Assembly: GCA_027485695.1 (NCBI GenBank)
Contig: JAIXQO010000003.1
Location: 866,932-930,931 of the forward strand
DNA length: 64,000 nt
Direction: 5' to 3'
Source of the DNA: Pseudomonadota bacterium
GTDB lineage: Bacteria > Bdellovibrionota > UBA1018
Translations under genes and position numbers: made by a program
Shown here: piece by piece, positions 3,109-28,372 of the stretch
Position numbering within the stretch: position 1 is the first letter of the stretch
Layout: each line of letters opens with the position of its first letter
Notes under the pieces: generated by a model
The model's input: only the letters and a program-made list of their open reading frames with translations
What the model was told of the DNA's origin: nothing
Database searches by the model: none

Positions 3109-4372
3109 GTCGAATAGGATTTCGCGACTGAAGCGTCGTATAGGGATAGAGGTCTGTTTCCGAAATCTCCGGACTCGATAGCGTGATATCGTAAGACTCT
3201 AAAATTTCGGACAAGATCCATTTCATTTCACGAAGCGCGAAACCGCGACCGACGCAAGAGCGCGCGCCCTTACCGAATGGAATGAATGCTTCTTCGCTCC
3301 AGCGTTTTGAGTCTTGGGGCCTGAGCGGGTCAAACCTCAGCGCGTCCGGGAAAAACCGCTCCATTCGGTGCAAGAGAAACGGGCTCACGGCCACGGAATC
3401 TCCCTTTCGAATGGAAGTCTCGCCCCAGGTATCGTCGGTGAATGCCGATCGACCGAAATTGGCGATCGCAGGATAGAGCCGTAGAGTCTCGAGAATCCAG
3501 TCCTCGAGAAAAGGGGTACTGGTCCGAGCCTGGGCTTGAAATTCCGGGCGACGCGCAAATTCATAGAGCGCGAACTGAAGCACGTTCGCCGACGTATCGT
3601 GACCTGCAATCAGGAGGTTGCGAAGATCGCCTTGGAGGCCCGCGTCTCCGATTCCGGCCTCGCGGTAGCTGGCTCGTAGTGGGTGGTTTTCGGGCATTGC
3701 CTGTACAATCGATTGGATGAGTTCGACGAAGGTACCGGTGAGGTGATTAAACGCAAACGAATAGTCGCCAAATAGTCGGATCGTGAGCGGGCTTGGGAAT
3801 TTTTGCCAAAGGACGAACCGCCGAAAAATCCCGTCCAAGGCCCGGCGAAGACGATCCGTTTTGGCGCGATCATCGAGTCTGAGTAAGTAGCGTGCGAACA
3901 GCTCCAGGGCGATTCGACTCATGAGCGGGCCGATCGGTATACTGTGGGGTTCTGTCAGGACTTCACTCAGGGTGTCTCGAACATGAGCACGGAGTTCCGA
4001 CTCTCGTGAATCAATTTGGGTCAGCCCGAAGTAACGGCCGAGGAGTTTTTGACTCTGTTTCCATTCGGTGCCTTCTTTGGTCACGATGCCGTGACCCAAG
4101 ATTTTCCGGAGTCGTTCGTAGCCTGGGCTGCGTTTACCGTACTGGGACGAGTGGGTCACTAAAACGCGCTCGATCAGTTCCGGGCGCAACGGAATCCAAT
4201 GGCTGCGTTCCGGAGTGATTCTAAAAACAATCACGTCAGCACGGCTTGCGAGAATCTTCGAATAGAGCTCGGGTCGTCCCAAGCCGAGTTGAATCAAATG
4301 CCCGGTCAGGAGACGACCGCTGATCGGATCCTGTGGCCATTCTTGAATCTGCAGAGGTGTTTGCTCGCTCAT
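3056..4372 (-). CDS. cytochrome P450 monooxygenase
   Basis: I-helix 'AGHDTS', K-helix 'ETLRLYP' (ExxR), and heme-binding loop 'FGKGARSCVGRGFA' (FxxGxRxCxG). Length 438 aa. Confidence 0.9.
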   Translation of the reverse strand: MSEQTPLQIQEWPQDPISGRLLTGHLIQLGLGRPELYSKILASRADVIVFRITPERSHWIPLRPELIERVLVTHSSQYGKRSPGYERLRKILGHGIVTKEGTEWKQSQKLLGRYFGLTQIDSRESELRAHVRDTLSEVLTEPHSIPIGPLMSRIALELFARYLLRLDDRAKTDRLRRALDGIFRRFVLWQKFPSPLTIRLFGDYSFAFNHLTGTFVELIQSIVQAMPENHPLRASYREAGIGDAGLQGDLRNLLIAGHDTSANVLQFALYEFARRPEFQAQARTSTPFLEDWILETLRLYPAIANFGRSAFTDDTWGETSIRKGDSVAVSPFLLHRMERFFPDALRFDPLRPQDSKRWSEEAFIPFGKGARSCVGRGFALREMKWILSEILESYDITLSSPEISETDLYPYTTLQSRNPIRLKFSRRIGRPGMPNHHD

Positions 4373-6498: not shown

Positions 6499-7003
6499 GA
6501 GCCGCCCCGTCGCTCCATCATCGCTTCCCATTCGATTAACCGATTCCGTTTGGGAATCTCCGGATTCAGCCGCCCCGGTCGGATCCTGGGCTGCAGATCA
6601 ACTCGTTCGCGAATTCGACCTCGAAGCCGCCCTGGATGCACTTCCTCAGAAGCTTTTTTTCAAAATCGGAGAGGTCGCTGATTTGCTCGCGGTCAAGACG
6701 TCCGTGCTTCGCTATTGGGAAAAAGAGTTCACCGGCTTAAAACCGCAAAAGTCCGAGTCCGGCCAGCGTGTCTATCGCAAGAAGGACGTCGAGACGCTGA
6801 TTTTTATTAAACATCTTTTGTATACCGAGCGGTTTTCGCTCGAAGGCGCTCGCAAGCATCTGAAGAATTTCAAGAACCGAGTTCAAGCGCGTTCCCAGAC
6901 CCCGGTTGCTGCAGAAGAAACGCCGGCAAAACGCGAAGTTCCCACCCAGGTGCGTGAGCTGCTGGATCGGCGGCTTGGGCATTTTTTTAAGTGGGTATTT
7001 TAA
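6470..7003 (+). CDS. MerR-family transcriptional regulator (start uncertain; overlaps ihfA 3' end)
   Basis: MerR HTH 'KLFFKIGEVADLLAVKTSVLRYWEKEFTGLKPQKSESGQRVYRKKDVETLIFIKHLL'. In-frame ATGs lie only at 6419, 6470, 6476, 6479 and 6485. There is no ATG/GTG/TTG between 6485 and the HTH, so the protein carries an N-terminal extension of at least 50 aa. Confidence 0.65.
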   Translation: MRMMRMAKIKSRPVAPSSLPIRLTDSVWESPDSAAPVGSWAADQLVREFDLEAALDALPQKLFFKIGEVADLLAVKTSVLRYWEKEFTGLKPQKSESGQRVYRKKDVETLIFIKHLLYTERFSLEGARKHLKNFKNRVQARSQTPVAAEETPAKREVPTQVRELLDRRLGHFFKWVF

Positions 7004-7962
7004 CGACGAGCGCGCGTGAGATTGAGGATTTTTTTCGCCAAGTTCTCACCCAAGACCTGCTCCATTTGAACAATCAGTCCCGGCGACGTGAAGTTATAGT
7101 CCGTGATCAGTCCGTCGATCAAGTCGATGGCGGCCCAGCGGATTTTCGATTGCTTCAGCCGTTTGGAGATCGCCGGTAGGGCTCGTTTTTCTTTTGCCGT
7201 CAGTGGTGCTGCTCGAACACTGCCTCCCGAATCCATGTTGATGATGGACTCTCCAGATTTTGGCAGTTTTTGGGCAAATGCGAGGAGCTTGCCGTCGATC
7301 CACCAGGTGCGCTTCTCTCCGTCCAGGATCGCAGGGCGATAGGCTTGCAGAGCTTGAGGCAGGTCCATGGTGGAGTGGAGGTCTGCTTGCGAGGCAAGTG
7401 CGTGATGGAGATCTCGAGATGAGCGGAGGATAGCGACCCCTTTGCTCTGGGCGGTATTCAGTGGTTTTAGAACCACCGTGCCGTGTTGTTTTAGAAATGA
7501 TTCCATCTCGGCTCGGTCAACCGTAATTAAGGTCGCGGGAGTGAGCTTGCGATCAAACAGGCACTCGAGTTTCTCGCTGCGAGAAAAGAGTGATTCGAGC
7601 GGATTCACGAGCTCGGTCGTGCGCTCGAGTTCGGCAAGCCGCATGAGTTGTAGCGGGAGCAAATAGGAGAGATCAACCGGTGGATCCGGGCGGTAGAAAG
7701 CCTGGGAAAATCCCGAGAGAACACTCCGTTTCGGTGCAGAAAAAACAAAACTCCCCGCATCGAGTCTGTCGGGGGCGTTCTTAAGTTCGCGGATTTCTGC
7801 CGTGAGTCTCCCTTGGTTCCAGGTGATCGTTTTGAAATCGCACCAGTGAACGGATTCGCCCTGAATACGAGCCTCTTGCATGACCCGCAGGGAGGTATCG
7901 CGAGGGTGATCGAGGGTATTCCAGGGGTCCGTGATGAAGAGGCGTTTTAGGCGTTTTCGCAT
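7000..7962 (-). CDS. gshB: glutathione synthetase (ATP-grasp)
   Basis: Collinear with E. coli GshB: 'TPATLITVDRAEMESFLKQHGTVVLKPL' vs 'TPETLVTRNKAQLKAFWEKHSDIILKPL'; 'LQAYRPAILDGEKRTWWIDGKLL' vs '[23 protein letters not shown]'; 'DYNFTSPG' vs 'EINVTSPT'. Confidence 0.85.
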   Translation of the reverse strand: MRKRLKRLFITDPWNTLDHPRDTSLRVMQEARIQGESVHWCDFKTITWNQGRLTAEIRELKNAPDRLDAGSFVFSAPKRSVLSGFSQAFYRPDPPVDLSYLLPLQLMRLAELERTTELVNPLESLFSRSEKLECLFDRKLTPATLITVDRAEMESFLKQHGTVVLKPLNTAQSKGVAILRSSRDLHHALASQADLHSTMDLPQALQAYRPAILDGEKRTWWIDGKLLAFAQKLPKSGESIINMDSGGSVRAAPLTAKEKRALPAISKRLKQSKIRWAAIDLIDGLITDYNFTSPGLIVQMEQVLGENLAKKILNLTRARR

Positions 7963-8780
7963 TTCTTTGCGATCTCCTCGACAAAAGGTTCCAAGGACGA
8001 TCGAAGCTCGAGCGGCAAGCGCTCTAACTTTTTCCTCAGGTCTTGAAGCTGTTTTTTTGCAAGCTGTTCGACGTCGGTGCGCGAAGCGATACTGGCGATG
8101 TGAGCGAAGTCGAGGCTCTTCTCGTTCCAGTCGTCCTCAAGGTCATCGGCCAGTTGAAAGAGAATACCAATCTGGCGGCCGATCGCACCGAGTTCGCGCG
8201 TGAAATCGGCGGTTTTCTCGGATGCAACCGAGGTGAGCATGAGGCAGAGCCCGAAGAGTGCGCCGGTCTTGCGTGAAAAGATCGATTCCAGAGCCGCAAG
8301 CGAAGTGGGCGCATTCAATTCAAACTCGGCCACTTGCCCGCCGATCAACTCTCCGCCATCGATGGATTCCAGAACGATCGAGAGAAGGCGCATGCGGACC
8401 GTGTCGCTGACCGGCAGCTTAAAAAGTTCCTGGAGCGCAAGCGGAGTGAGCGCATCGCCCGCGAGGAGCGCAGTCGCCTCGCCAAAGAGTTTGTGATTCG
8501 TCGGTTTACCGCGCCTGAAATCGTCGTCGTCCATCGCAGGCAGATCGTCATGGATCAGTGTGTAGGTGTGAATGAATTCAACCAGCGCCGCAAGCGGGAA
8601 CAGTTCTCGGTCACTCAGGCCCAAGGCCAGACCGGAGGCGAAAATCAGCCGGGGCCGAATGCGTTTGCCGCCCGAGAAAACGCTGTAACGAACGGAGTTC
8701 CAGAGCGGAGCCGGAAACCGGTCTTTTTGAATCTGGAGGCGGTCTTCGAGATAGGCTTCGAAAGCGGAGGTTCGATCCAT
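7947..8780 (-). CDS. ispA: polyprenyl (farnesyl/geranylgeranyl) diphosphate synthase
   Basis: First Asp-rich motif 'LIHDDLPAMDDDDFRRGKPTNH' and second 'FQLADDLEDDW'. Its start overlaps the gspN stop (TAATG). Confidence 0.85.
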   Translation of the reverse strand: MDRTSAFEAYLEDRLQIQKDRFPAPLWNSVRYSVFSGGKRIRPRLIFASGLALGLSDRELFPLAALVEFIHTYTLIHDDLPAMDDDDFRRGKPTNHKLFGEATALLAGDALTPLALQELFKLPVSDTVRMRLLSIVLESIDGGELIGGQVAEFELNAPTSLAALESIFSRKTGALFGLCLMLTSVASEKTADFTRELGAIGRQIGILFQLADDLEDDWNEKSLDFAHIASIASRTDVEQLAKKQLQDLRKKLERLPLELRSSLEPFVEEIAKKCENA

Positions 8781-9703
8781 TAGGTATCTGGTTGTGGCAT
8801 GGATGCGTTCAAAGGGCCAATGAGTTTAAACTTGTAGCTGCCGTCTTTTTGCTTCATTTGCCCCAGAAGCGCATCGAGGAGCGAAAACGACTGCTGAAGC
8901 TTGGGAGAGAGCGAGAGCTCCACGCGGAGATTCGCATCGCTACTGTCGATGTATTGGGCGAGTTTCACGTCGCCTTTCAAGCTCACGTAGAGATCGTCAC
9001 TGGCGGCAGCGCGACCCAGTCGGAATGTCTTGATCTTGACGTTCGGTTGCGCGATTTCGATATCGATCGATCCCGTTGCCAAAGCGATTTTCGGAATTTG
9101 AAATCCTTGAATCTTGGTTTCATCAAGCGAGATGCGGCTCAGCTCCAGTCCGATCTGTCCGTTTTTCTCTTCGATTTGGATCGTACCTTTGACCTCGGCG
9201 GTGCCTTGAAGATCCGGGGATAAGAACGGCAGTACGCCGATTCGCCCGAGGTTCAATGACTCGATCTTGAGATCCGCTTCGGGTTTCTGGTTCTTGATGT
9301 AGACGGAGCCATAGATGCGGCCTTCGCCTTCTTCGAGAACAAGGTCTCCGCCGAGTTTGCCTTGAACGGCGGCGATGATCGATGGATGAAGCTCGAGTTT
9401 AGAAAAACTGAGGGCTTTTTGGGTGGCGGTCTTCAGGACTTTGACTCCGCTGAGTTCGTAATAAAGCCCGAAACCCAGCTTGATTTTGCCTTCGTCAGCC
9501 GACAGCGCATAGCCCATCGGAGCGATTTCTTGGTTGACCATGCCCAGAAGGGTAGCCGTGATCTTGGTTTGAGGAATGCGGAGTAGCGTAAAGAAAAGCA
9601 GGCAAAAAAGCGCGAAAAGCCCCCAGGAAACCGTCTTGAGGATGCGTTTAGATTTGGGTTCCTGAATTTCTTCGATCGAGATCGTATCTTCCATCAGATC
9701 CAT
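8780..9703 (-). CDS. gspN: type II secretion system protein N-like (membrane-anchored periplasmic protein)
   Basis: N-terminal TM 'VSWGLFALFCLLFFTLL'. It is the last gene of the gsp operon, directly after gspM, in the canonical position. The call rests on position and topology only. Confidence 0.5.
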   Translation of the reverse strand: MDLMEDTISIEEIQEPKSKRILKTVSWGLFALFCLLFFTLLRIPQTKITATLLGMVNQEIAPMGYALSADEGKIKLGFGLYYELSGVKVLKTATQKALSFSKLELHPSIIAAVQGKLGGDLVLEEGEGRIYGSVYIKNQKPEADLKIESLNLGRIGVLPFLSPDLQGTAEVKGTIQIEEKNGQIGLELSRISLDETKIQGFQIPKIALATGSIDIEIAQPNVKIKTFRLGRAAASDDLYVSLKGDVKLAQYIDSSDANLRVELSLSPKLQQSFSLLDALLGQMKQKDGSYKFKLIGPLNASMPQPDT

Positions 9704-22034: not shown

Positions 22035-23228
22035 TTACCGAATCAGGTAACTAAAATTGTTCATTTTGCCGCCGCGGCGGACGCAGAGTTCGAGGTTGCT
22101 CTTGGTCTTGAGGCTAGCGAGAAGTTCAAACGCCTTGCCGGCGTCATTGATCGGATCGCCGTCGACGCCGCAGAGGATGTCGTTATCTTTGAGGCCGAGT
22201 TTGTCGTAGATAGAGCCCGGTACGATCTGGATGAGTTTGAATCCGGAGGGTACGCCGTTTTCTAGATGAGGGACGGCACGAGCTTCGGTGAGAATCTTGT
22301 TTAAATCAGAGAGGGCCTTGTCAATTTCCGTACGCGACACATTGAATTGGCTCGGGGAGAGTTGTTCGATACCGCCACCAGCCGGACCGCTGGCGGTCGT
22401 TTTCTTGGAGAGCGAGATCGAGTTTTGTTCGCCTTCGGGGAGATCGACGAACTCGCGTTTGCCTGTCGCTTTGTTCAAGAAGATGACTTTGTAAGGCTCG
22501 ATCGCAAGAATCTTGGCTTTGCCTGGAATTTCGTCGTCGATTCGAACCGGGTAAACGACATTCTCGTTACGGTCTTCGATCGTTGCCACCGAACGTAGTT
22601 CGTTCCTGAGCACCAATGTTCCAATCAGGTTAAAAGGGAGCGAGGTTTTGACCGGAACATTGTTCTGGTCCATCGGTCCACCCGGCAAATCGTCGCCTGG
22701 AATCAGTCCTTTGTTATTGAAAAGGTTGCGCGTGATGATGATCTGGTAGTCGGTCAGTGCCCGACGTTTGATAGTGCTTCCGCCGCTGGAGCGAAGTGAG
22801 CGAGCGGCCGGCGGTTCTGGGATGAGTCGCTCGATGAAAATCGAAAAGAGTCCCGCCGCCAAATAGGTGACTAAGAGAATCGCAAGGATGAGGGTAGCGA
22901 ATTGAAGCGTGTCCGCATTAAAAGAGAGCCCACGTCCACCCGCAAGAACCGCGGCGCCGCCGCCGAGACTGAGGTTCGGGCGACGAATGTTCGCCATCGT
23001 TTTATGGATGCGCGCACGCAGGGTTTTCGTCAGTGTGCCTTCGCGATCGGGTCCGGGGCGGTCGGTATAGTCGGCGTTGGATTTTTTTCGACCGATACCG
23101 CGCAAGCGCTCGCCGAACGAAGAGAATCGTTCTTTGAGCTTTGCTTTCCAATTCGGTTTTTCTTCAAACGGTAGATTGCCGGCCATCTCAGTGAGGGCTA
23201 GGAGCAAGCCCAGTGCCAGCACGATCAA
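22035..23228 (-). CDS. gspC: type II secretion system protein C (TM + HR domain + C-terminal PDZ)
   Basis: N-terminal TM 'FATLILAILLVTYLAAGLFSIFI'. C-terminal PDZ-like 'KLGLKDNDILCGVDGDPINDAGKAFELLASL'. It is the first gene of the operon. Confidence 0.75.
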   Translation of the reverse strand: MIVLALGLLLALTEMAGNLPFEEKPNWKAKLKERFSSFGERLRGIGRKKSNADYTDRPGPDREGTLTKTLRARIHKTMANIRRPNLSLGGGAAVLAGGRGLSFNADTLQFATLILAILLVTYLAAGLFSIFIERLIPEPPAARSLRSSGGSTIKRRALTDYQIIITRNLFNNKGLIPGDDLPGGPMDQNNVPVKTSLPFNLIGTLVLRNELRSVATIEDRNENVVYPVRIDDEIPGKAKILAIEPYKVIFLNKATGKREFVDLPEGEQNSISLSKKTTASGPAGGGIEQLSPSQFNVSRTEIDKALSDLNKILTEARAVPHLENGVPSGFKLIQIVPGSIYDKLGLKDNDILCGVDGDPINDAGKAFELLASLKTKSNLELCVRRGGKMNNFSYLIR

Positions 23229-23289
23229 ACGATTCGTGCGATCTAAGTTGATCTAAGTCGAATCATACCAATGAGTTATCGATAGTCAG

Positions 23290-23390
23290 TGGATTGTCGG
23301 CTCTGCAATTGGCTGGAGGGCTTTGACAATTTGTCAGGGTATGCAAATCACAAACCCCCTGTTTCGACAAATTGTCCAAACAGGGGGTCG
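23290..23390. promoter_or_regulatory. T2SS operon upstream region with three GACAA/TTGTC palindromic sites
   Basis: 'tgacaatttgtca' (23324-23336) and 'gacaaattgtc' (23366-23376) are perfect palindromes. A third half-site 'attgtc' lies at 23293. The region is 60-140 nt upstream of the gspC start. Confidence 0.35.
23341..23387 (-). terminator. hairpin terminator downstream of the repeat-protein gene
   Basis: 10-bp perfect stem ccccctgttt/aaacaggggg (23355-23387) enclosing the palindrome above. On the minus strand it is followed by TTTGTGATTTG. It sits 30 nt past the stop of the 23414-24571 gene. Confidence 0.5.
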
Positions 23391-23413
23391 AATGAAATCC
23401 GTTCAATTTTCCT

Positions 23414-24571
23414 TTAACGACGACGGGACGAAGGGAATAGATCCTCTCGGAGTGTCCAATCGACGGGGCCTTGGCTGAAGAACTGCGCCGTCCATTTTTG
23501 AACTTTGAGCGAGCTATTCGGTCGTTTGTAGCCCGAAACCCGGTGCATACGACGATGGGTTTCAAAAGAGATCTCATGGAAATCCATCCAGGCCTGGCGG
23601 TAGGGTTTCATCGTATCCACTGACTTGTCGTCATGGAGTACCAGGTCGAAGATGTGTGGCTTGTCGGTGCTCGACAACTGCAGTGTGAACTCGCCGGGAT
23701 TAAACCAGTTGATCACTTGTCTTGGACGGCGATCTTTCGAACTCAAATCGATTCCGACGTCGTAGCTCTGAGGAATGCCGAGCATATCGTAAGCTTCAGG
23801 ACCGATCTCTTGCTCGAATGCCTCCAGTGAAATGCTGATTCGATCGTACTCGGTCTTAGACTTCATCAGTTCCCAATAGAGCTCTTTGTCGAGCGTTCGA
23901 ACTTCTTTGAGTACTGCGTTCAAGATATCCTCGCGGGTGAGGCTCGGATTCCAGAGGCGTGCTTCACGATGAAGAATCTCGCGCGCGAAGGTCTCATCGT
24001 GCGGTTCAAGTTCATGAGTTTCGAGGTATTCCATGACGTAACCGCCGTTACCGGTTTTGTCGCCAAACTCTTGATCACGAGATCGTGAATCATCGCCATC
24101 CATCCCGTTACCGGTCTTATCGCCGCGAACACCCTCGGTGTTCTCTCGGTCAATTCCGTTACCGGTTTTGTCTCCGAAACTGTTCCCAGTCTTGTCTCCG
24201 AAACTGTTCCCAGTCTTGTCTCCGAAACTGTTCCCGGTCTTGTCTCCGAAACTGTTCCCGGTCTTGTCTCCGACACCGTTCCCAGTCTTATCTCCGACAC
24301 CGTTCCCAGTCTTATCTCCGACACCGTTCCCAGTCTTATCTCCGACACCGTTCCCGGTCTTGTCTCCGAAACTGTTCCCAGTCTTATCTCCGAAACTCTT
24401 TGTGCCTGGTTGAGACGATTCGCCTTCGTGACGTTTACGTCGAGAAGAGTCAGATTTTGCGGTGCTTTTGGTTGCATCGGTGGAGCGATTCTTGGGTCTA
24501 TCGCCTGCGTATACTCCAGTCGTGAGGACCAGAAACGCGCTGACTATGATCAGATGAACGGGGTGATTCAT
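23414..24571 (-). CDS. secreted protein with about 13 tandem 8-aa repeats (FGDKTGNS/GVGDKTGN) and a conserved C-terminal domain
   Basis: Signal peptide 'MNHPVHLIIVSAFLVLTTGVYA'. Repeat array 'GDKTGNSFGDKTGNGVGDKTGNGV...'. C-terminal globular domain of about 230 aa. Confidence 0.75.
   Translation of the reverse strand: MNHPVHLIIVSAFLVLTTGVYAGDRPKNRSTDATKSTAKSDSSRRKRHEGESSQPGTKSFGDKTGNSFGDKTGNGVGDKTGNGVGDKTGNGVGDKTGNGVGDKTGNSFGDKTGNSFGDKTGNSFGDKTGNSFGDKTGNGIDRENTEGVRGDKTGNGMDGDDSRSRDQEFGDKTGNGGYVMEYLETHELEPHDETFAREILHREARLWNPSLTREDILNAVLKEVRTLDKELYWELMKSKTEYDRISISLEAFEQEIGPEAYDMLGIPQSYDVGIDLSSKDRRPRQVINWFNPGEFTLQLSSTDKPHIFDLVLHDDKSVDTMKPYRQAWMDFHEISFETHRRMHRVSGYKRPNSSLKVQKWTAQFFSQGPVDWTLREDLFPSSRRR
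24045..24415 (-). repeat. perfect 24-bp in-frame tandem repeat array (core 24177-24410), units 'gtctccgaaactgttcccagtctt' / 'atctccgacaccgttcccagtctt'
   Basis: About 10 perfect and 4 degenerate 24-nt units are visible directly in the sequence. They create artefactual + strand ORFs (24085..24525, 24138..24413). Confidence 0.95.
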
Positions 24572-24574
24572 AAC

Positions 24575-25369
24575 CTAATTTTCCTTGCGTTTCTGAGTGA
24601 GGGGAAACAGCTGCATCGAGAGTCGGTAGACTTCGCTGCGATTCCCGGTTTCCATCAAATCAGATAGTTCGTCTTGGAAACGGCGGATACGTTCTTTGGC
24701 AATGGCCATTTTGGAGGGGTCGATCGCCATGGTGATCGTCGAAAAGTCTCGTTCATCGATTTCGCGTTCATTGAGGGCGTTTTTGGCGAGGTCGAGGTTT
24801 TCTTCGTAACATTTACGAAGGGACAAATCGACGATGTCATCCGAAGTGCGAACAGACTTCGTATCGCGAAGAAGGGCGCCATCGTCCGTTCGGCGAATCA
24901 AGCCAAGTTCCAAAAGACGAGACATGACTTCGGAAACTCGGTGGGTCGAGACGCCGAGTCGACGAGCGATCCACTCTTGGTCCGATTGGAAATCAGAGCA
25001 ATTCATCAATGATAAAAGGGCGTAGTGTTCCCACTCGGCGATCATGCGGAATTGTGCCGCCGAAAGCGCGAGGTAACGTGCTTCGTAGACGGCTTCCTCA
25101 ACGGTGAGTTCCATCCGGCGTTTTTCTGGGAAAAGCGAGAGCAGGTCGGCGCGCTCTTGTGGATCCGGAATGAGTTTCAGGGTAATTCGCTCAGCGAGAT
25201 CCTTTGAAACAGTTCGTTTTCCGTTCATGATCAGGCTCAGGGCTCCAGCGTTGATCCCGATGCGCTTGGAGTAAGCGCGGAGGGAAAATCTCGGATTGGC
25301 CAGCTGGATCTCGTACAGTTTCTTGCGGAGGGTTTGTTGGAGGGCGAGTTGTTCTTTCATGAAACGCAC
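24575..25369 (-). CDS. HTH-domain protein (XRE-like N-terminal HTH; resembles the TIGR02147 Fibrobacter/Bdellovibrio paralogous family)
   Basis: 'LRAYSKRIGINAGALSLIMNGKRTVSKDLAERI' is a helix-turn-helix. Size 264 aa. The family assignment is from memory and is uncertain. Confidence 0.55.
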   Translation of the reverse strand: MRFMKEQLALQQTLRKKLYEIQLANPRFSLRAYSKRIGINAGALSLIMNGKRTVSKDLAERITLKLIPDPQERADLLSLFPEKRRMELTVEEAVYEARYLALSAAQFRMIAEWEHYALLSLMNCSDFQSDQEWIARRLGVSTHRVSEVMSRLLELGLIRRTDDGALLRDTKSVRTSDDIVDLSLRKCYEENLDLAKNALNEREIDERDFSTITMAIDPSKMAIAKERIRRFQDELSDLMETGNRSEVYRLSMQLFPLTQKRKEN

Positions 25370-25576
25370 TGTAAGCGGTCATGAAACATTTTTCAATAAA
25401 CATTAGGTAACAAATCGTTTCCAACGATGAAACACCTGAAACCCCTCATGATTTGTATCACTGTCTATTTGTTTTACAGGTGGGGATTTCACGCTGTAGA
25501 CGCACCGTCCACGCAAACTGCGGGTGAGTGATAACTCCTGATCATAGACCGATCGATCCTCTGATAAGTTATTTTC

Positions 25577-26779
25577 ATGAGTTTATTTAAAATCACGCTG
25601 ATCGCCGTGGTGGCGCAAGTCTTGATCTCGAGCGCGAACGGGTATGCGCTGCCAGATTCTGGATTCGTGCCCATTGGACGCGGGTTTAAGAATGGGCACG
25701 AGACGCTGCACCTGGTGTCGGTCGGACGGCGCGACATCGATGGATACCGTGGTTTCGATCGAGTACAATTCTACTATCAGAACTCCTCGACCGGCGAAAA
25801 AGCACTGATGGGTCCTTCGGTTTATTTGTTTGGCGATTTATTGCAGTCATCGGACGCAAAAAAAGTCGAAGATCAGCTCCAGAGTTTCTATGACGCCAAT
25901 GGCCTAAAACGCGGTCGTGGCGGCGCCAACTACCTTGCGGTTACTTCGATGGTCTATCGTGACTTTTTTCGCGGTGAACTAGACGCGGAGGATGTCCTAG
26001 GCCTCGGCCTCATCTTGTACGTCACGGGCATGGTGATGAAGAACGCCACTGCCGAGCATTTTGATGTGAAACTCGACAACCTGGGTTTCGCTTTTATTGC
26101 CGCCGCTCCGCTCGCAGTGGATCTGGTGTTCGCGCCTTTTCGGTGGATCGTTTCACAACTGTCGTCTCGTGAGCGTTTCAATTACATGAAGTCCGGGGAG
26201 TTCAAACCGCTCCGCGAGGTGGCGCTTGAGAACTGGGGATTAAGAGCCCATCGTTTGCGCTCCAGAGTGTTCAGTACGCTCAAATCTGAGCTCATCAACG
26301 CGGGTACTGACTCACTTTTTGATGAGATTCCACGCGGTAGTTTCGATTGTGGCGTTGAACGGATCCGTTTCGTGACCAGTGAGCGACTCGCTCGTGAGGT
26401 CGCGCGCGAAAACCGCCGGGGCTCAAGAGGTACGGACAATCCGTGGCACCGCTATCCTTATGCGTGGGAATCGCGCGGATTTGCTCGCGAGGAACTGCTG
26501 AGCAATACGAGTCTCGAGCTGAAACATCAGGGCGCCTGGAGGATCGACGGAAATTTCGATTTCGAGCAGACTGCAGGCGAAAAAAACGCCGAGAAGGTTT
26601 GCCTGTCGGTCGCGCTAGATCATCCGAGCCGGGCGCAGCCGTTGATCACAAAACTCTGTGCAAAGGCGGAATCGTCGTACGAGAACGCGTACCCGATCTA
26701 TCAAACCATGCAGTCTCTCGCTCAGCAGTGGTCAGCCCGGATCCCGGGCGGCCTGTCTTGCGTTGAAAATCAGCGGTAA
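25577..26779 (+). CDS. secreted hypothetical protein (400 aa)
   Basis: Signal peptide 'MSLFKITLIAVVAQVLISSANGYA'. No recognisable catalytic motif. Confidence 0.6.
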   Translation: MSLFKITLIAVVAQVLISSANGYALPDSGFVPIGRGFKNGHETLHLVSVGRRDIDGYRGFDRVQFYYQNSSTGEKALMGPSVYLFGDLLQSSDAKKVEDQLQSFYDANGLKRGRGGANYLAVTSMVYRDFFRGELDAEDVLGLGLILYVTGMVMKNATAEHFDVKLDNLGFAFIAAAPLAVDLVFAPFRWIVSQLSSRERFNYMKSGEFKPLREVALENWGLRAHRLRSRVFSTLKSELINAGTDSLFDEIPRGSFDCGVERIRFVTSERLAREVARENRRGSRGTDNPWHRYPYAWESRGFAREELLSNTSLELKHQGAWRIDGNFDFEQTAGEKNAEKVCLSVALDHPSRAQPLITKLCAKAESSYENAYPIYQTMQSLAQQWSARIPGGLSCVENQR

Positions 26780-26796
26780 GAAAACTCCAGAGGCGG

Positions 26797-27645
26797 TCAA
26801 TCACGCACGCGTTTCAGCTGGTGGGAATCGATCGTGGAGATCGTCGCTTTTGCAGTCGTGGGGGCAAGCGTTGGAGCATTCGCTAATGCGATTTGTGTGA
26901 TGCCCGTCGGTAGTCCGAGCGACCAGAACTGAGTGCCCCGAACGTTGACGGTGAGGCGATTGAAGGGGGTTCTATCTGCGGTTTCTAGTTTAAATCTGCC
27001 CGGGCCTTTGCGCACGACTTGAATATCGAGTTGGCGGAGATCCGTTTTGGTCAGATTCTTCTGAGCTAAGTAAGTCAGTTCTAGTCGTCCGCCCGTTTTG
27101 CGGGAAAAATCAGCTCCTGTCTTAATCATGATCGCGGGTGTTCCACCGGGAAGTTCAATCAGTTTCAGTCCGTCGCTCAATTCTTCGAGCCGCAGCCCGA
27201 TGCAACGATAGCCGAGCTTGCGGTCTACGATGAAACGATTGCGCTCCAGGTTTACGCGGGTTCCGCCCGATATCTCCTCTAAATTGTGGCAGTAGATCAT
27301 GACATCGATTTCGGATTGGTTCGCTTGCAGACGGTAGGCGAGAAACCCGCCGTAGCCGTTCATTTTCGTGTCGGAAGGGTTTGCGTAGAGGTCGACGAGC
27401 AGATTTGCCCGGCGATCGATTAGGGACGAAGGAGTGCCTGTGCTCGAGTGGGCGGGAGAAGTTTCGAGACTTTCGGCCTCGTCGCCGGGTAGTTCATCTA
27501 GGTTCCATATCGTGGAACTTGAACTCGGCTCGCGACTCGCCGGAATGTTTACTCGCTCAATGACCTGTAGTGTTAGCCAGGTGCATAGAAATCCGAAAAA
27601 AGCGCTCAAAGAAAAGCTGCGTAATTCTTTGATTTTAGGGGACAT
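26797..27645 (-). CDS. membrane-anchored/secreted hypothetical protein
   Basis: Internal start 'MSPKIKELRSFSLSAFFGFLCTWLTL' is preceded by 'gagagg' 8 nt upstream. The ORF track begins at 27753 with 36 more residues. Confidence 0.5.
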   Translation of the reverse strand: MSPKIKELRSFSLSAFFGFLCTWLTLQVIERVNIPASREPSSSSTIWNLDELPGDEAESLETSPAHSSTGTPSSLIDRRANLLVDLYANPSDTKMNGYGGFLAYRLQANQSEIDVMIYCHNLEEISGGTRVNLERNRFIVDRKLGYRCIGLRLEELSDGLKLIELPGGTPAIMIKTGADFSRKTGGRLELTYLAQKNLTKTDLRQLDIQVVRKGPGRFKLETADRTPFNRLTVNVRGTQFWSLGLPTGITQIALANAPTLAPTTAKATISTIDSHQLKRVRD

Positions 27646-27889
27646 TTCTCTACCTCTCGCGATGGTCTGCCAATCCACTGATCGGAGGGGTGTAGAATAT
27701 GTAACGCTATGTGTCAATGTTTTGAATGAGTGACCAGAAATTTGACAGTTCATTACGGGGTGTGTTAAAAGTTTGGCCGGTTGAACTTCGGCCTACAGCG
27801 AAAGGTTGGATTCAGACGGCTCCGGGCAGGAGCCTCTGACGCTCAAGGAGAAGTTTTGGGTCTCTTAAGTTTTCTCGGAGGTTCAGGGC

Positions 27890-28372
27890 ATGTTTAAAGT
27901 CGGCGACAGCGCGGTCTATCCAGCACACGGAGTAGCAATCGTTAAGCGAATTGATGAACGTGAAGTGGGTGGGCGAGTGAAGCAGTTCTATGTCCTCCAA
28001 GTGATCGAAACCCAAATGACCATCATGGTTCCCGTCGACAACGCTGATTCTGTAGGCTTGCGCGAGATCATCTCCGATAAAGAGGTGTCGAATGTTTATA
28101 AGATCCTGAAAAAGCGCGACGTCAAGATCGACCAAACCACCTGGAACCGTCGTTACCGCGAGTACTCGGAAAAAATCAAGACCGGTTCCGTGTACGAAAT
28201 CGCCGAAGTGCTCCGCAATCTTTTTCTTCTTCGGTCTTCCAAAGACCTTTCGTTTGGCGAGCGCAAGATGCTCGATCAAGCGAAAGCTCTCCTCGTCAAA
28301 GAAATCTCCCTCGCTCGCCAAGCTCAAGAAGACGCGATCGAAGAGGAAATTCAGACGATATTTGCTTCGTAA
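27890..28372 (+). CDS. cdnL: CarD/CdnL-family RNA-polymerase-binding transcription factor
   Basis: 'MFKVGDSAVYPAHGVAIVKRIDEREVGGRVKQFYVLQV' is the RNAP-interacting tudor-like domain of CarD_CdnL_TRCF. Length 160 aa. RBS 'ggagg' lies 9 nt upstream. Confidence 0.85.
   Translation: MFKVGDSAVYPAHGVAIVKRIDEREVGGRVKQFYVLQVIETQMTIMVPVDNADSVGLREIISDKEVSNVYKILKKRDVKIDQTTWNRRYREYSEKIKTGSVYEIAEVLRNLFLLRSSKDLSFGERKMLDQAKALLVKEISLARQAQEDAIEEEIQTIFAS

Follow-up and report, generated by a model that had tools for sequence, protein, structure and literature searches.

The window analysed here, by which we mean the whole stretch of 64,000 nucleotides (nt) of Bdellovibrionota DNA, contains at positions 23414-24571 of its minus strand an intact open reading frame (ORF) of 385 residues, part of which is taken up by an array of 8-residue repeats built around the hexapeptide GDKTGN. 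This ORF, which we call the target, follows directly upon the gene for a helix-turn-helix protein of the TIGR02147/DUF4423 type. We find that other DUF4423 genes are likewise followed by the gene for an exported partner protein, that these partners share an N-terminal signature, and that the repeat unit of the target matches this signature. The best explanation for the whole, which we hold to be probable while leaving ample room for doubt, is that the target is the exported partner of a DUF4423 module in which the signature has been amplified into an array for multivalent display. The origin of the repeat in an amplified signature was overlooked by the initial annotation, which, made from the letters of the window alone, had singled out the tandem repeats and the operon for a type II secretion system (T2SS) next door.

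The loci that we compared are the contigs of regulator homologues (eleven homologues, ten on record), paralogous modules in L003 and L044, and the window. Wherever downstream sequence is available, the next gene after the DUF4423 gene, on the same strand, encodes a partner (13 of 13 loci, the window counted); the two genes overlap by as much as 11 nt or lie as much as 42 nt apart. Partners are 283-541 residues long, and canonical signal peptides are found at the equivalent place in all family homologues. The target occupies just this position, on the same strand and after a 3-nt gap. As the genes that flank the pair change from locus to locus, at sites that are unrelated and non-syntenic in the relatives, regulator and partner are best regarded as a self-contained module.

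What the partners have in common is, above all, the signature G-[DE]-K-x-G-N-G-G, present in 12 of the 13 (11 relatives, where it sits at the mature N-terminus, and the target, where it is found as the repeat unit). With the cleavage site marked by a slash, mature N-termini read A/GEKGGNGG, A/GEKAGNGG, A/GGKAGNGG and A/GDKGGNGG, and that of L092, G/GDKTGNGG, is the target unit exactly; in the paralogue from L003 the signature is degenerate (GGSHGGD). The signature is followed by a domain of about 180 residues with two conserved cysteines, one soon after the signature and one in a G-C some 100 residues further on (the two presumably forming a disulfide), and an invariant H-E in the motif AALxxHExxx[KR], beyond which the C-terminal region is variable. 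L003, L095 and L089 are also without one or both cysteines. A calcium loop with an HD pair, as in phospholipase A2 (PLA2), was considered for the family and rejected, as was a zincin-type HExxH, the second histidine of which is not conserved (the family motif being H-E-x-x-x-[KR]). The family is defined here from 12 sequences and has no Pfam or NCBIfam entry: searches of Pfam, NCBIfam and PDB yielded no match for the partners (the PDB search, made with the family profile, gave noise), and neither the motif strings nor the DUF4423-partner pairing was found in any paper by literature search. Among 5728 ORFs, a loose regular expression for the signature matched only the family, the target, an orthologue of the target that we discuss below, and two GspC linkers. 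The partner proteins are an undescribed family, in Bdellovibrionota, that carries its signature directly after signal-peptide cleavage.

Does the target resemble these proteins in more than its repeat? Profile comparisons show that its last ~200 residues are a diverged, truncated and cysteine-less member of the family. When the family profile (12 sequences) is aligned with residues 171-371 of the target, hhalign returns a probability of 96% and an E-value of 3.7e-9 over 172 columns. When 5681 ORFs are searched with hmmsearch, the target is the top non-member at 28.2 bits (E 4e-7), and the next ORF follows at E 0.86. These scores owe something to similarity beyond the motif alone, since the target reaches 31.3 bits where the maximum among 1000 shuffles that retained GDKTGNGG is 16.0. 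The MAFFT alignment is colinear throughout: GDKTGNGG-YVMEY in the target stands opposite GEKAGNGG-VVFEC, RQVINWFNP opposite RQIVNWIED and AWMDFHEISFE opposite AALILHEVIYE, while TREDILNAVLKEVRTLD pairs with TREEIIKNTLADFLRVD of the family and H332-E333, in the context QAWMDFHEISFETHR, is aligned to the invariant H-E.

This homology is visible at profile level only. An exhaustive phmmer search with the C-terminal 210 residues against 1.84 billion cluster representatives retrieved nothing except the target itself, and a word-indexed search with the same segment gave no match; the full target, searched in the same way against 5.8 billion proteins, likewise found only itself, although here the 8000 candidates were probably taken up by matches to repeat words. 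Scans of the target against Pfam, NCBIfam, PHROGs and PADLOC gave none above cut-off, and a PDB sequence search with its domain gave noise only. The initial annotation had described a signal peptide followed, after the repeats, by a conserved C-terminal domain of about 230 residues. We do see the hydrophobic N-terminal segment; the C-terminal part, however, measures about 210 residues and, given that phmmer finds only the target itself, cannot be called conserved in the ordinary sense.

Because the C-terminal domain is related to the family and the repeat unit corresponds to the family's N-terminal signature, the repeat can be understood as that signature, amplified. Unit 12 (GDKTGNGG at residues 171-178) lies immediately before the domain, internal rather than at the mature N-terminus, and hhalign, hmmsearch and MAFFT all align it with the family's GEKAGNGG/GDKTGNGG. 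It would thus be the signature in its canonical position, which makes units 1-11 extra upstream copies. Twelve GDKTGN hexapeptides can be counted in the target rather than the ~13 first claimed, ten of them contiguous (residues 59-140) and two dispersed (residues 150 and 170). A degenerate DNA pattern for the hexapeptide occurs 12 times in the 64 kb, always within the target ORF, with 0 occurrences expected (100 shuffles).

Tandem Repeats Finder reports a single array (24168-24397) of period 24 with 9.6 copies, 94% matches, no indels and a score of 355. That the ORF contains a 24-base-pair (bp) tandem array is therefore correct, but the perfection ascribed to it is not: the ten contiguous units comprise seven distinct 24-mers, and identity is limited to units 3-5 and to units 8-9. 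Nor do the spacer dipeptides SF and GV alternate, as had been proposed; they run in blocks (two SF, four GV, four SF), after which the next dipeptide is GI. The cores of the domain-proximal units 10-12 are the most alike (GACAAAACCGGTAAC) and homogenisation is strongest among the 5' units, a pattern that fits outward growth of the array followed by recent slippage. Further ORFs across the array, on either strand, are by-products of the repeat.

A metagenome contig, L084 (JGI 3300033569), allows the array to be compared between lineages. Its DUF4423 product is 93-95% identical to that of the window and its flanking DNA 83-88% identical. After a 4-nt gap the DUF4423 gene is followed by an ORF that begins MNHPIHAVMISALLTLATGAYA and leads into the array SFGDKTGN, SFGDSTGS, GTGEQPGS, HFGDKTGN, AFGDKTGN, GFGDKTGN, GFGDKTGN; beyond it come GLEDENTDGFR, then GDKTGN and GFGDKTGN, and then the end of the contig. 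Before the landmark G[IL][DE].ENT.G.R we count seven units in L084 (two of them degenerate) compared to ten in the window, and the arrangement after the landmark is also unlike, so that both copy number and arrangement vary between lineages. In this respect the initial annotation holds up well: recent in-frame expansion or contraction is borne out by the identity of adjacent units and by the difference in unit number and arrangement from the L084 orthologue, and a 24-nt unit that lies in frame within the coding sequence produces length variation and no on/off switching (we considered phase variation and rejected it on these grounds). Inside the DUF4423 gene of L084, positions 676-1040 hold a run of N and a ParA/MinD-like segment, which is probably a scaffolding mis-join that gave rise to the odd fused protein P0117.

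More importantly, the seven intact cores of L084 vary at all 6 third codon positions (on average 3.1 of 6 between pairs of cores) with zero amino-acid changes. The window array varies at 5 of the 6 third positions of the motif. Since the L084 cores change only synonymously, the hexapeptide appears to be under purifying selection. The spacer dipeptide, in contrast, is free to change: SF, GV, GF, AF, HF, GI, GL and GM are all found in the window and L084 together.

Arrays of tandem repeats are easily mis-assembled, and one might suspect that the array has been collapsed or expanded by the assembler, or that the ORF is no gene. We consider this hardly credible. The array is only ~246 bp long and lies inside a 1.19-Mb contig, its units carry distinguishing substitutions, an independent metagenome contig encodes matching architecture, and the correct frame has a strong coding signal. 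Specifically, codon usage in the non-repeat C-terminal part scores a log-odds of 0.29 bits per codon in its own frame, with the remaining five frames all at or below 0.03; the 23 confident window genes that provided the reference have a mean of 0.28 (range 0.12-0.43). G+C by codon position is like that of adjacent genes, and local G+C, at ~51%, is ordinary. The target is a genuine gene, given that native codon usage is best in its own frame and that its start, Shine-Dalgarno sequence and N-terminus are conserved in L084. By inspection, the N-terminus (MNHPVHLIIVSAFLVLTTGVYA, followed by GD) resembles a cleavable signal peptide. Its first residues after the predicted cleavage site, GDRPKN, may be the decayed relic of a signature at the original mature N-terminus. 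We conclude that the target is no artefact and encodes a fast-evolving, probably exported protein of a predatory-type member of the Bdellovibrionota.

How might the array have come about and what might it do? We suggest that in-frame tandem duplication of the signature codons, proceeding outward from the canonical unit 12, gave rise to the 12 copies, and that more recent events of slippage or unequal recombination have made the 5' units alike and continue to shift copy number between lineages. The signature itself could be an autonomous short linear element for recognition or binding, with a partner protein, an envelope component or a cation as conceivable ligands; it seems autonomous because its copies keep their six residues even as the spacer dipeptide and the synonymous sites change. 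On this view the array would present the signature many times over, in a flexible and disordered form attached to a degenerated domain, and variation in array length would tune valency and reach. Expression of the target would presumably go together with that of the co-transcribed DUF4423 regulator, which may also control it, rather than with the T2SS operon.

Several observations weigh against this account. Both family cysteines are missing from the target (Y/L and D-R stand in their place in the alignment), and the protein ends ~50 residues past H-E, without the C-terminal extension of the family. Over the first 60 residues, the L084 orthologue and the target are identical at only 26 (43%) next to a regulator that is 93-95% identical; on this comparison, the target appears to be evolving far faster than its regulator. 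Lost cysteines, missing extension and rapid divergence of the linker would also fit relaxed constraint. The homology itself rests on 12 family sequences with an effective number (Neff) of 4.2, the n-region of the signal-peptide-like segment, which was judged by eye and homology, is without Lys or Arg, and AlphaFold2 run without an alignment was unusable, with a predicted local distance difference test score (pLDDT) of 34 for the full-length protein, 37 for the domain and ~33 over the array. Gene conversion could mimic conservation of the motif in the window array, although much less so in L084. Finally, the function proposed for the signature is pure conjecture. All other members carry it just once, at the N-terminus, and it may work only as a free N-terminus or within the fold; internal copies would then do nothing.

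The main rival explanation takes the array for a functionally neutral stretch of disorder, expanded by slippage in a decaying, lineage-specific paralogue that is heading for loss. Imagine the protein had been released from constraint: we would expect the cysteines and the C-terminal extension to disappear, the linker to diverge at the rate we see beside its well-conserved neighbour, single-sequence searches to detect no homologue and AlphaFold2 to see no structure, all of which is the case. However, the ORF remains intact, over at least its first 140 codons, in two lineages whose flanking DNA differs by 12-17%, its codon usage is native, and H-E and the colinear domain have been retained. Crucially, decay does not predict that motif residues should be invariant while the synonymous sites of L084 all vary. 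On balance we regard neutral decay as unlikely, if deserving to be taken seriously, and prefer to see the target as a module partner with an amplified signature.

A bolder version of the preferred reading would hold that the signature is a new short sorting or attachment tag of exported Bdellovibrionota proteins, hard-wired to TIGR02147/DUF4423 regulators in a two-gene module of wide occurrence, and that the target is a variant in which the tag has been multimerised. We offer this as a long shot. If true, the tag would act in outer-membrane translocation, in anchoring to the envelope or prey surface, or in cation-dependent docking, and the target would demonstrate that the tag is autonomous.

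The features on which the remainder of the argument turns are collected in the table. The target start codon lies 3 nt past the stop codon of the regulator, with its Shine-Dalgarno sequence (AAGGA) inside the regulator's final codons. The regulator matches Pfam DUF4423 (PF14394) at E 5.9e-45 and TIGR02147 at E 6.6e-33, and, besides the P0117 fragment at 93% identity, more than 120 homologues were found at 39-59%; its start codon (25360) was assigned from P0002 and L084. Upstream of it is a sigma-70-like site, a putative operon promoter, which has a counterpart of matching spacing in L084 (TTGAAA-17-TACATT). Downstream of the target is a terminator-like hairpin, and the 121-nt region that contains it folds at -39.3 kcal/mol (z -3.7; 0 of 200 shuffles fold as well). 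A simple terminator scan did not list this hairpin, probably owing to its long loop or inner stem. Judging from these consensus features, regulator and target would form a two-gene operon with the target second, a transcription unit separate from that of gspC: the 3-nt coupling, the hairpin and the separate promoter-like site before gspC all place the target in the transcription unit of the regulator and not in that of the gsp genes.

Table. Features of the target, its putative operon and the start of the T2SS operon (window coordinates)
Feature	Position	Strand	Remarks
gspC	22035..23228	-	NF041515 GspC_delta, E 2e-48; Pfam T2SSC + PDZ; context, outside the module
Sigma-70-like match CTGACT-16-TG-TATGAT	23262..23289	-	upstream of gspC; consensus match only
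Palindromes GACAA[T/A]TTGTC (two)	23325-23335, 23366-23376		41 bp apart; second in hairpin loop
Terminator-like hairpin	23353..23389	-	24 nt past target stop; 12-bp G+C-rich stem plus inner stem, then UUUGUGAUUUG
Target coding sequence	23414..24571	-	385 residues; mature protein cysteine-free; start (MNHP.H) and Shine-Dalgarno sequence kept in L084
Residues 171-371, diverged homologue of family N-domain (profile match)	23459..24061	-	includes H332-E333 (23573-23578)
Unit 12, FGDKTGNGGY	24038..24067	-	canonical family position, immediately before the domain
Dispersed unit 11, RGDKTGNG	24104..24127	-	after the landmark G-I-D-R-E-N-T-E-G-V-R, common to L084
Ten contiguous 24-nt units, xxGDKTGN	24152..24397	-	dipeptide blocks given in the text
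Residues 23-58, basic Ser/Thr-rich linker	24398..24505	-	pI 10.5; begins GDRPKN
Residues 1-22, signal-peptide-like segment	24506..24571	-	h-region LIIVSAFLVLTTGV; VYA/G site; by inspection
TIGR02147/DUF4423 helix-turn-helix gene	24575..25360	-	261 residues from ATG 25360; Pfam and NCBIfam profiles
Sigma-70-like match TTGAAA-17-TACAGT	25368..25396	-	upstream of DUF4423 gene; consensus match only

The two GACAA[T/A]TTGTC palindromes between the transcription units are the sole exact copies in the 64 kb and could together make a possible operator. As a compelling signal they were rejected: 2.4 matches are expected when up to one mismatch is allowed, which makes their significance weak. A direct repeat, GATCTAAGTT (x1.9), is present at 23240-23258, shortly before the gspC start as annotated; when relatives are compared, however, the ATG at ~23186 (MAGNLPFEEKPNWK...) looks like a possible true start of gspC.

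The target does lie just upstream of the T2SS operon, as initially noted: on its strand come gspC, at a distance of 185 bp, then gspD, E, F, G, K and an L-like gene. It is tempting to read this arrangement, in combination with an N-terminus like that of a Sec-type signal peptide, as a T2SS substrate encoded beside its machine, the more so as two distant relatives (L003 and L044) have a DUF4423 module 3-4 kb from gspC. The D/K/T/N-rich repeat would then be a metal-, mineral- or glycan-binding stalk; it is indeed hydrophilic, and Asp, Asn and Thr could ligate cations.

Two sets of observations argue against this model. First, there is the coupling of the target to the DUF4423 gene instead, and the terminator-like hairpin and separate promoter-like site that intervene before gspC. 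Second, orthologous and paralogous modules are found in unrelated contexts. To place the window among its relatives we scanned for GspD, retaining one genome per species, and obtained 80 T2SS loci (1.2 Mb), mostly from metagenome-assembled genomes (MAGs) of Bdellovibrionota that are affiliated with Bdellovibrionales, Bacteriovoracaceae or 'Oligoflexia', the top GspD identity being 66%. Nothing similar to the target is encoded in these 80 loci (tblastn). A profile search of all their ORFs identified DUF4423-partner modules within 10 kb in 2 of the 80, L003 and L044, in both of which the module lies on the far side of carD, and in none of the 80 at the position of the target. Two in 80 is about what chance predicts, on the assumption that genomes carry several modules each.

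The interval upstream of gspC is itself very variable. In the relatives, a divergent carD/cdnL gene precedes gspC at a distance of 0.26-6.2 kb; the interval often contains an acyl-CoA-dehydrogenase-like gene, whereas the closest relatives (L003, L059, L063 and L080) have nothing there. In the window, carD/cdnL is located at 27890-28369 (+), and the interval (23228-27890) holds four genes, namely the target, the DUF4423 gene, orf318 and orf400. The spot occupied by the target is thus a variable one, and the target is no conserved part of the T2SS neighbourhood. Its adjacency to the T2SS operon looks coincidental, and with a module in only 2 of the 80 T2SS loci the inference from position to substrate goes unsupported; nor does any known family of calcium- or metal-binding repeats match the array. 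We rate a T2SS substrate with a metal-, mineral- or glycan-binding stalk as quite improbable. The T2SS may still export the target, as it may any periplasmic protein, but position gives no support. Neither of the other two genes in the interval, orf400 (25577-26779, +) and orf318 (26797-27753, -), matches a family in Pfam, NCBIfam, PHROGs or PADLOC; the N-terminus of orf400 resembles a signal peptide, and orf318 shows weak similarity (24%) to an ORF at the equivalent position in L001 and L004.

Individual modules differ in their make-up. L085 has two tandem partner paralogues (6801-7826 and 7924-8946) behind one DUF4423 gene, and L095 has two tandem DUF4423 genes (144-830 and 1169-1963) ahead of one partner, so the regulator-partner module can be open to local duplication. 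The module of L093 is flanked by phage-type genes with ORF6N and Phage_pRha domains (130-327 and 3388-3858), and some copies may travel with prophages.

Taken alone, the repeat protein would be a lineage-specific curiosity. It leads, however, to a conserved and apparently undescribed Bdellovibrionota gene pair, in which a TIGR02147/DUF4423 protein is translationally coupled to an exported protein whose N-terminal signature is sharply conserved. Predatory bacteria have multiple copies of DUF4423 proteins, and the pairing offers a first concrete candidate target gene for each regulator. Our literature search on DUF4423 brought up nothing beyond a proteome study of B. bacteriovorus, in which the DUF4423 protein Bd3700 rises during growth in prey (PMC12546842). 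The repeat-expanded variant provides a natural handle on what the signature binds, and the analysis removes the tempting annotation 'T2SS substrate by position'.

The systems closest to the target are the TIGR02147/DUF4423 proteins of Fibrobacter and Bdellovibrionota together with their exported partners, with which it shares position, signature, colinear domain and H-E. It differs from the other DUF4423 partners in having 12 signature copies instead of one and a basic linker of 36 residues, and in having neither the cysteines nor the C-terminal extension.

With regard to the repeat, we agree with the initial annotation that it belongs to no described family: Pfam and NCBIfam give no match above cut-off, and the literature search on the motif strings came back empty. 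The nearest approach is the prion octapeptide repeat (PF03991), with which the array shares an 8-residue period and richness in glycine; the match (E 1.4e-4, 22.3 bits) falls below the gathering score of 32 and the repeat is without His or Trp, so that the likeness goes no further than composition and period. A collagen-like repeat was rejected on account of a period that is not a multiple of 3 residues, and an RTX repeat because its period is 9 rather than 8; no described repeat model matched. A scan of viral contigs for the repeat pattern found none. Among 241 million metagenome records, GDKTGN-xx-GDKTGN occurs on three contigs (L081, L082 and L083), which all encode one eukaryote-type protein, a fungus-like, Ser/Thr-rich, mucin-like secreted protein with C-terminal QGGDKTGN repeats (L081 2786-2875). 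Its hexapeptide is that of the target, yet the two have no flanking sequence in common, and to judge from this comparison the GDKTGN of the fungus-like protein evidently arose independently, by convergence.

In terms of its dynamics the array recalls surface and secreted proteins with an in-frame variable number of tandem repeats (VNTR), such as the alpha C / Rib family and the staphylococcal SD-repeat proteins, in which slippage or unequal recombination varies copy number. As in those proteins, the unit of the target is a multiple of three nucleotides, adjacent units are near-identical, copy number varies between lineages and the repeat lies between a signal peptide, putative in the target, and a folded domain. 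Unlike them, the target has a unit of only 8 residues, derived from a family signature rather than from a domain or dipeptide, has no cell-wall anchor, and comes from Gram-negative Bdellovibrionota. In this broader context, the target is a variant within an undescribed but ordinary-looking class of exported VNTR proteins whose repeats vary in frame.

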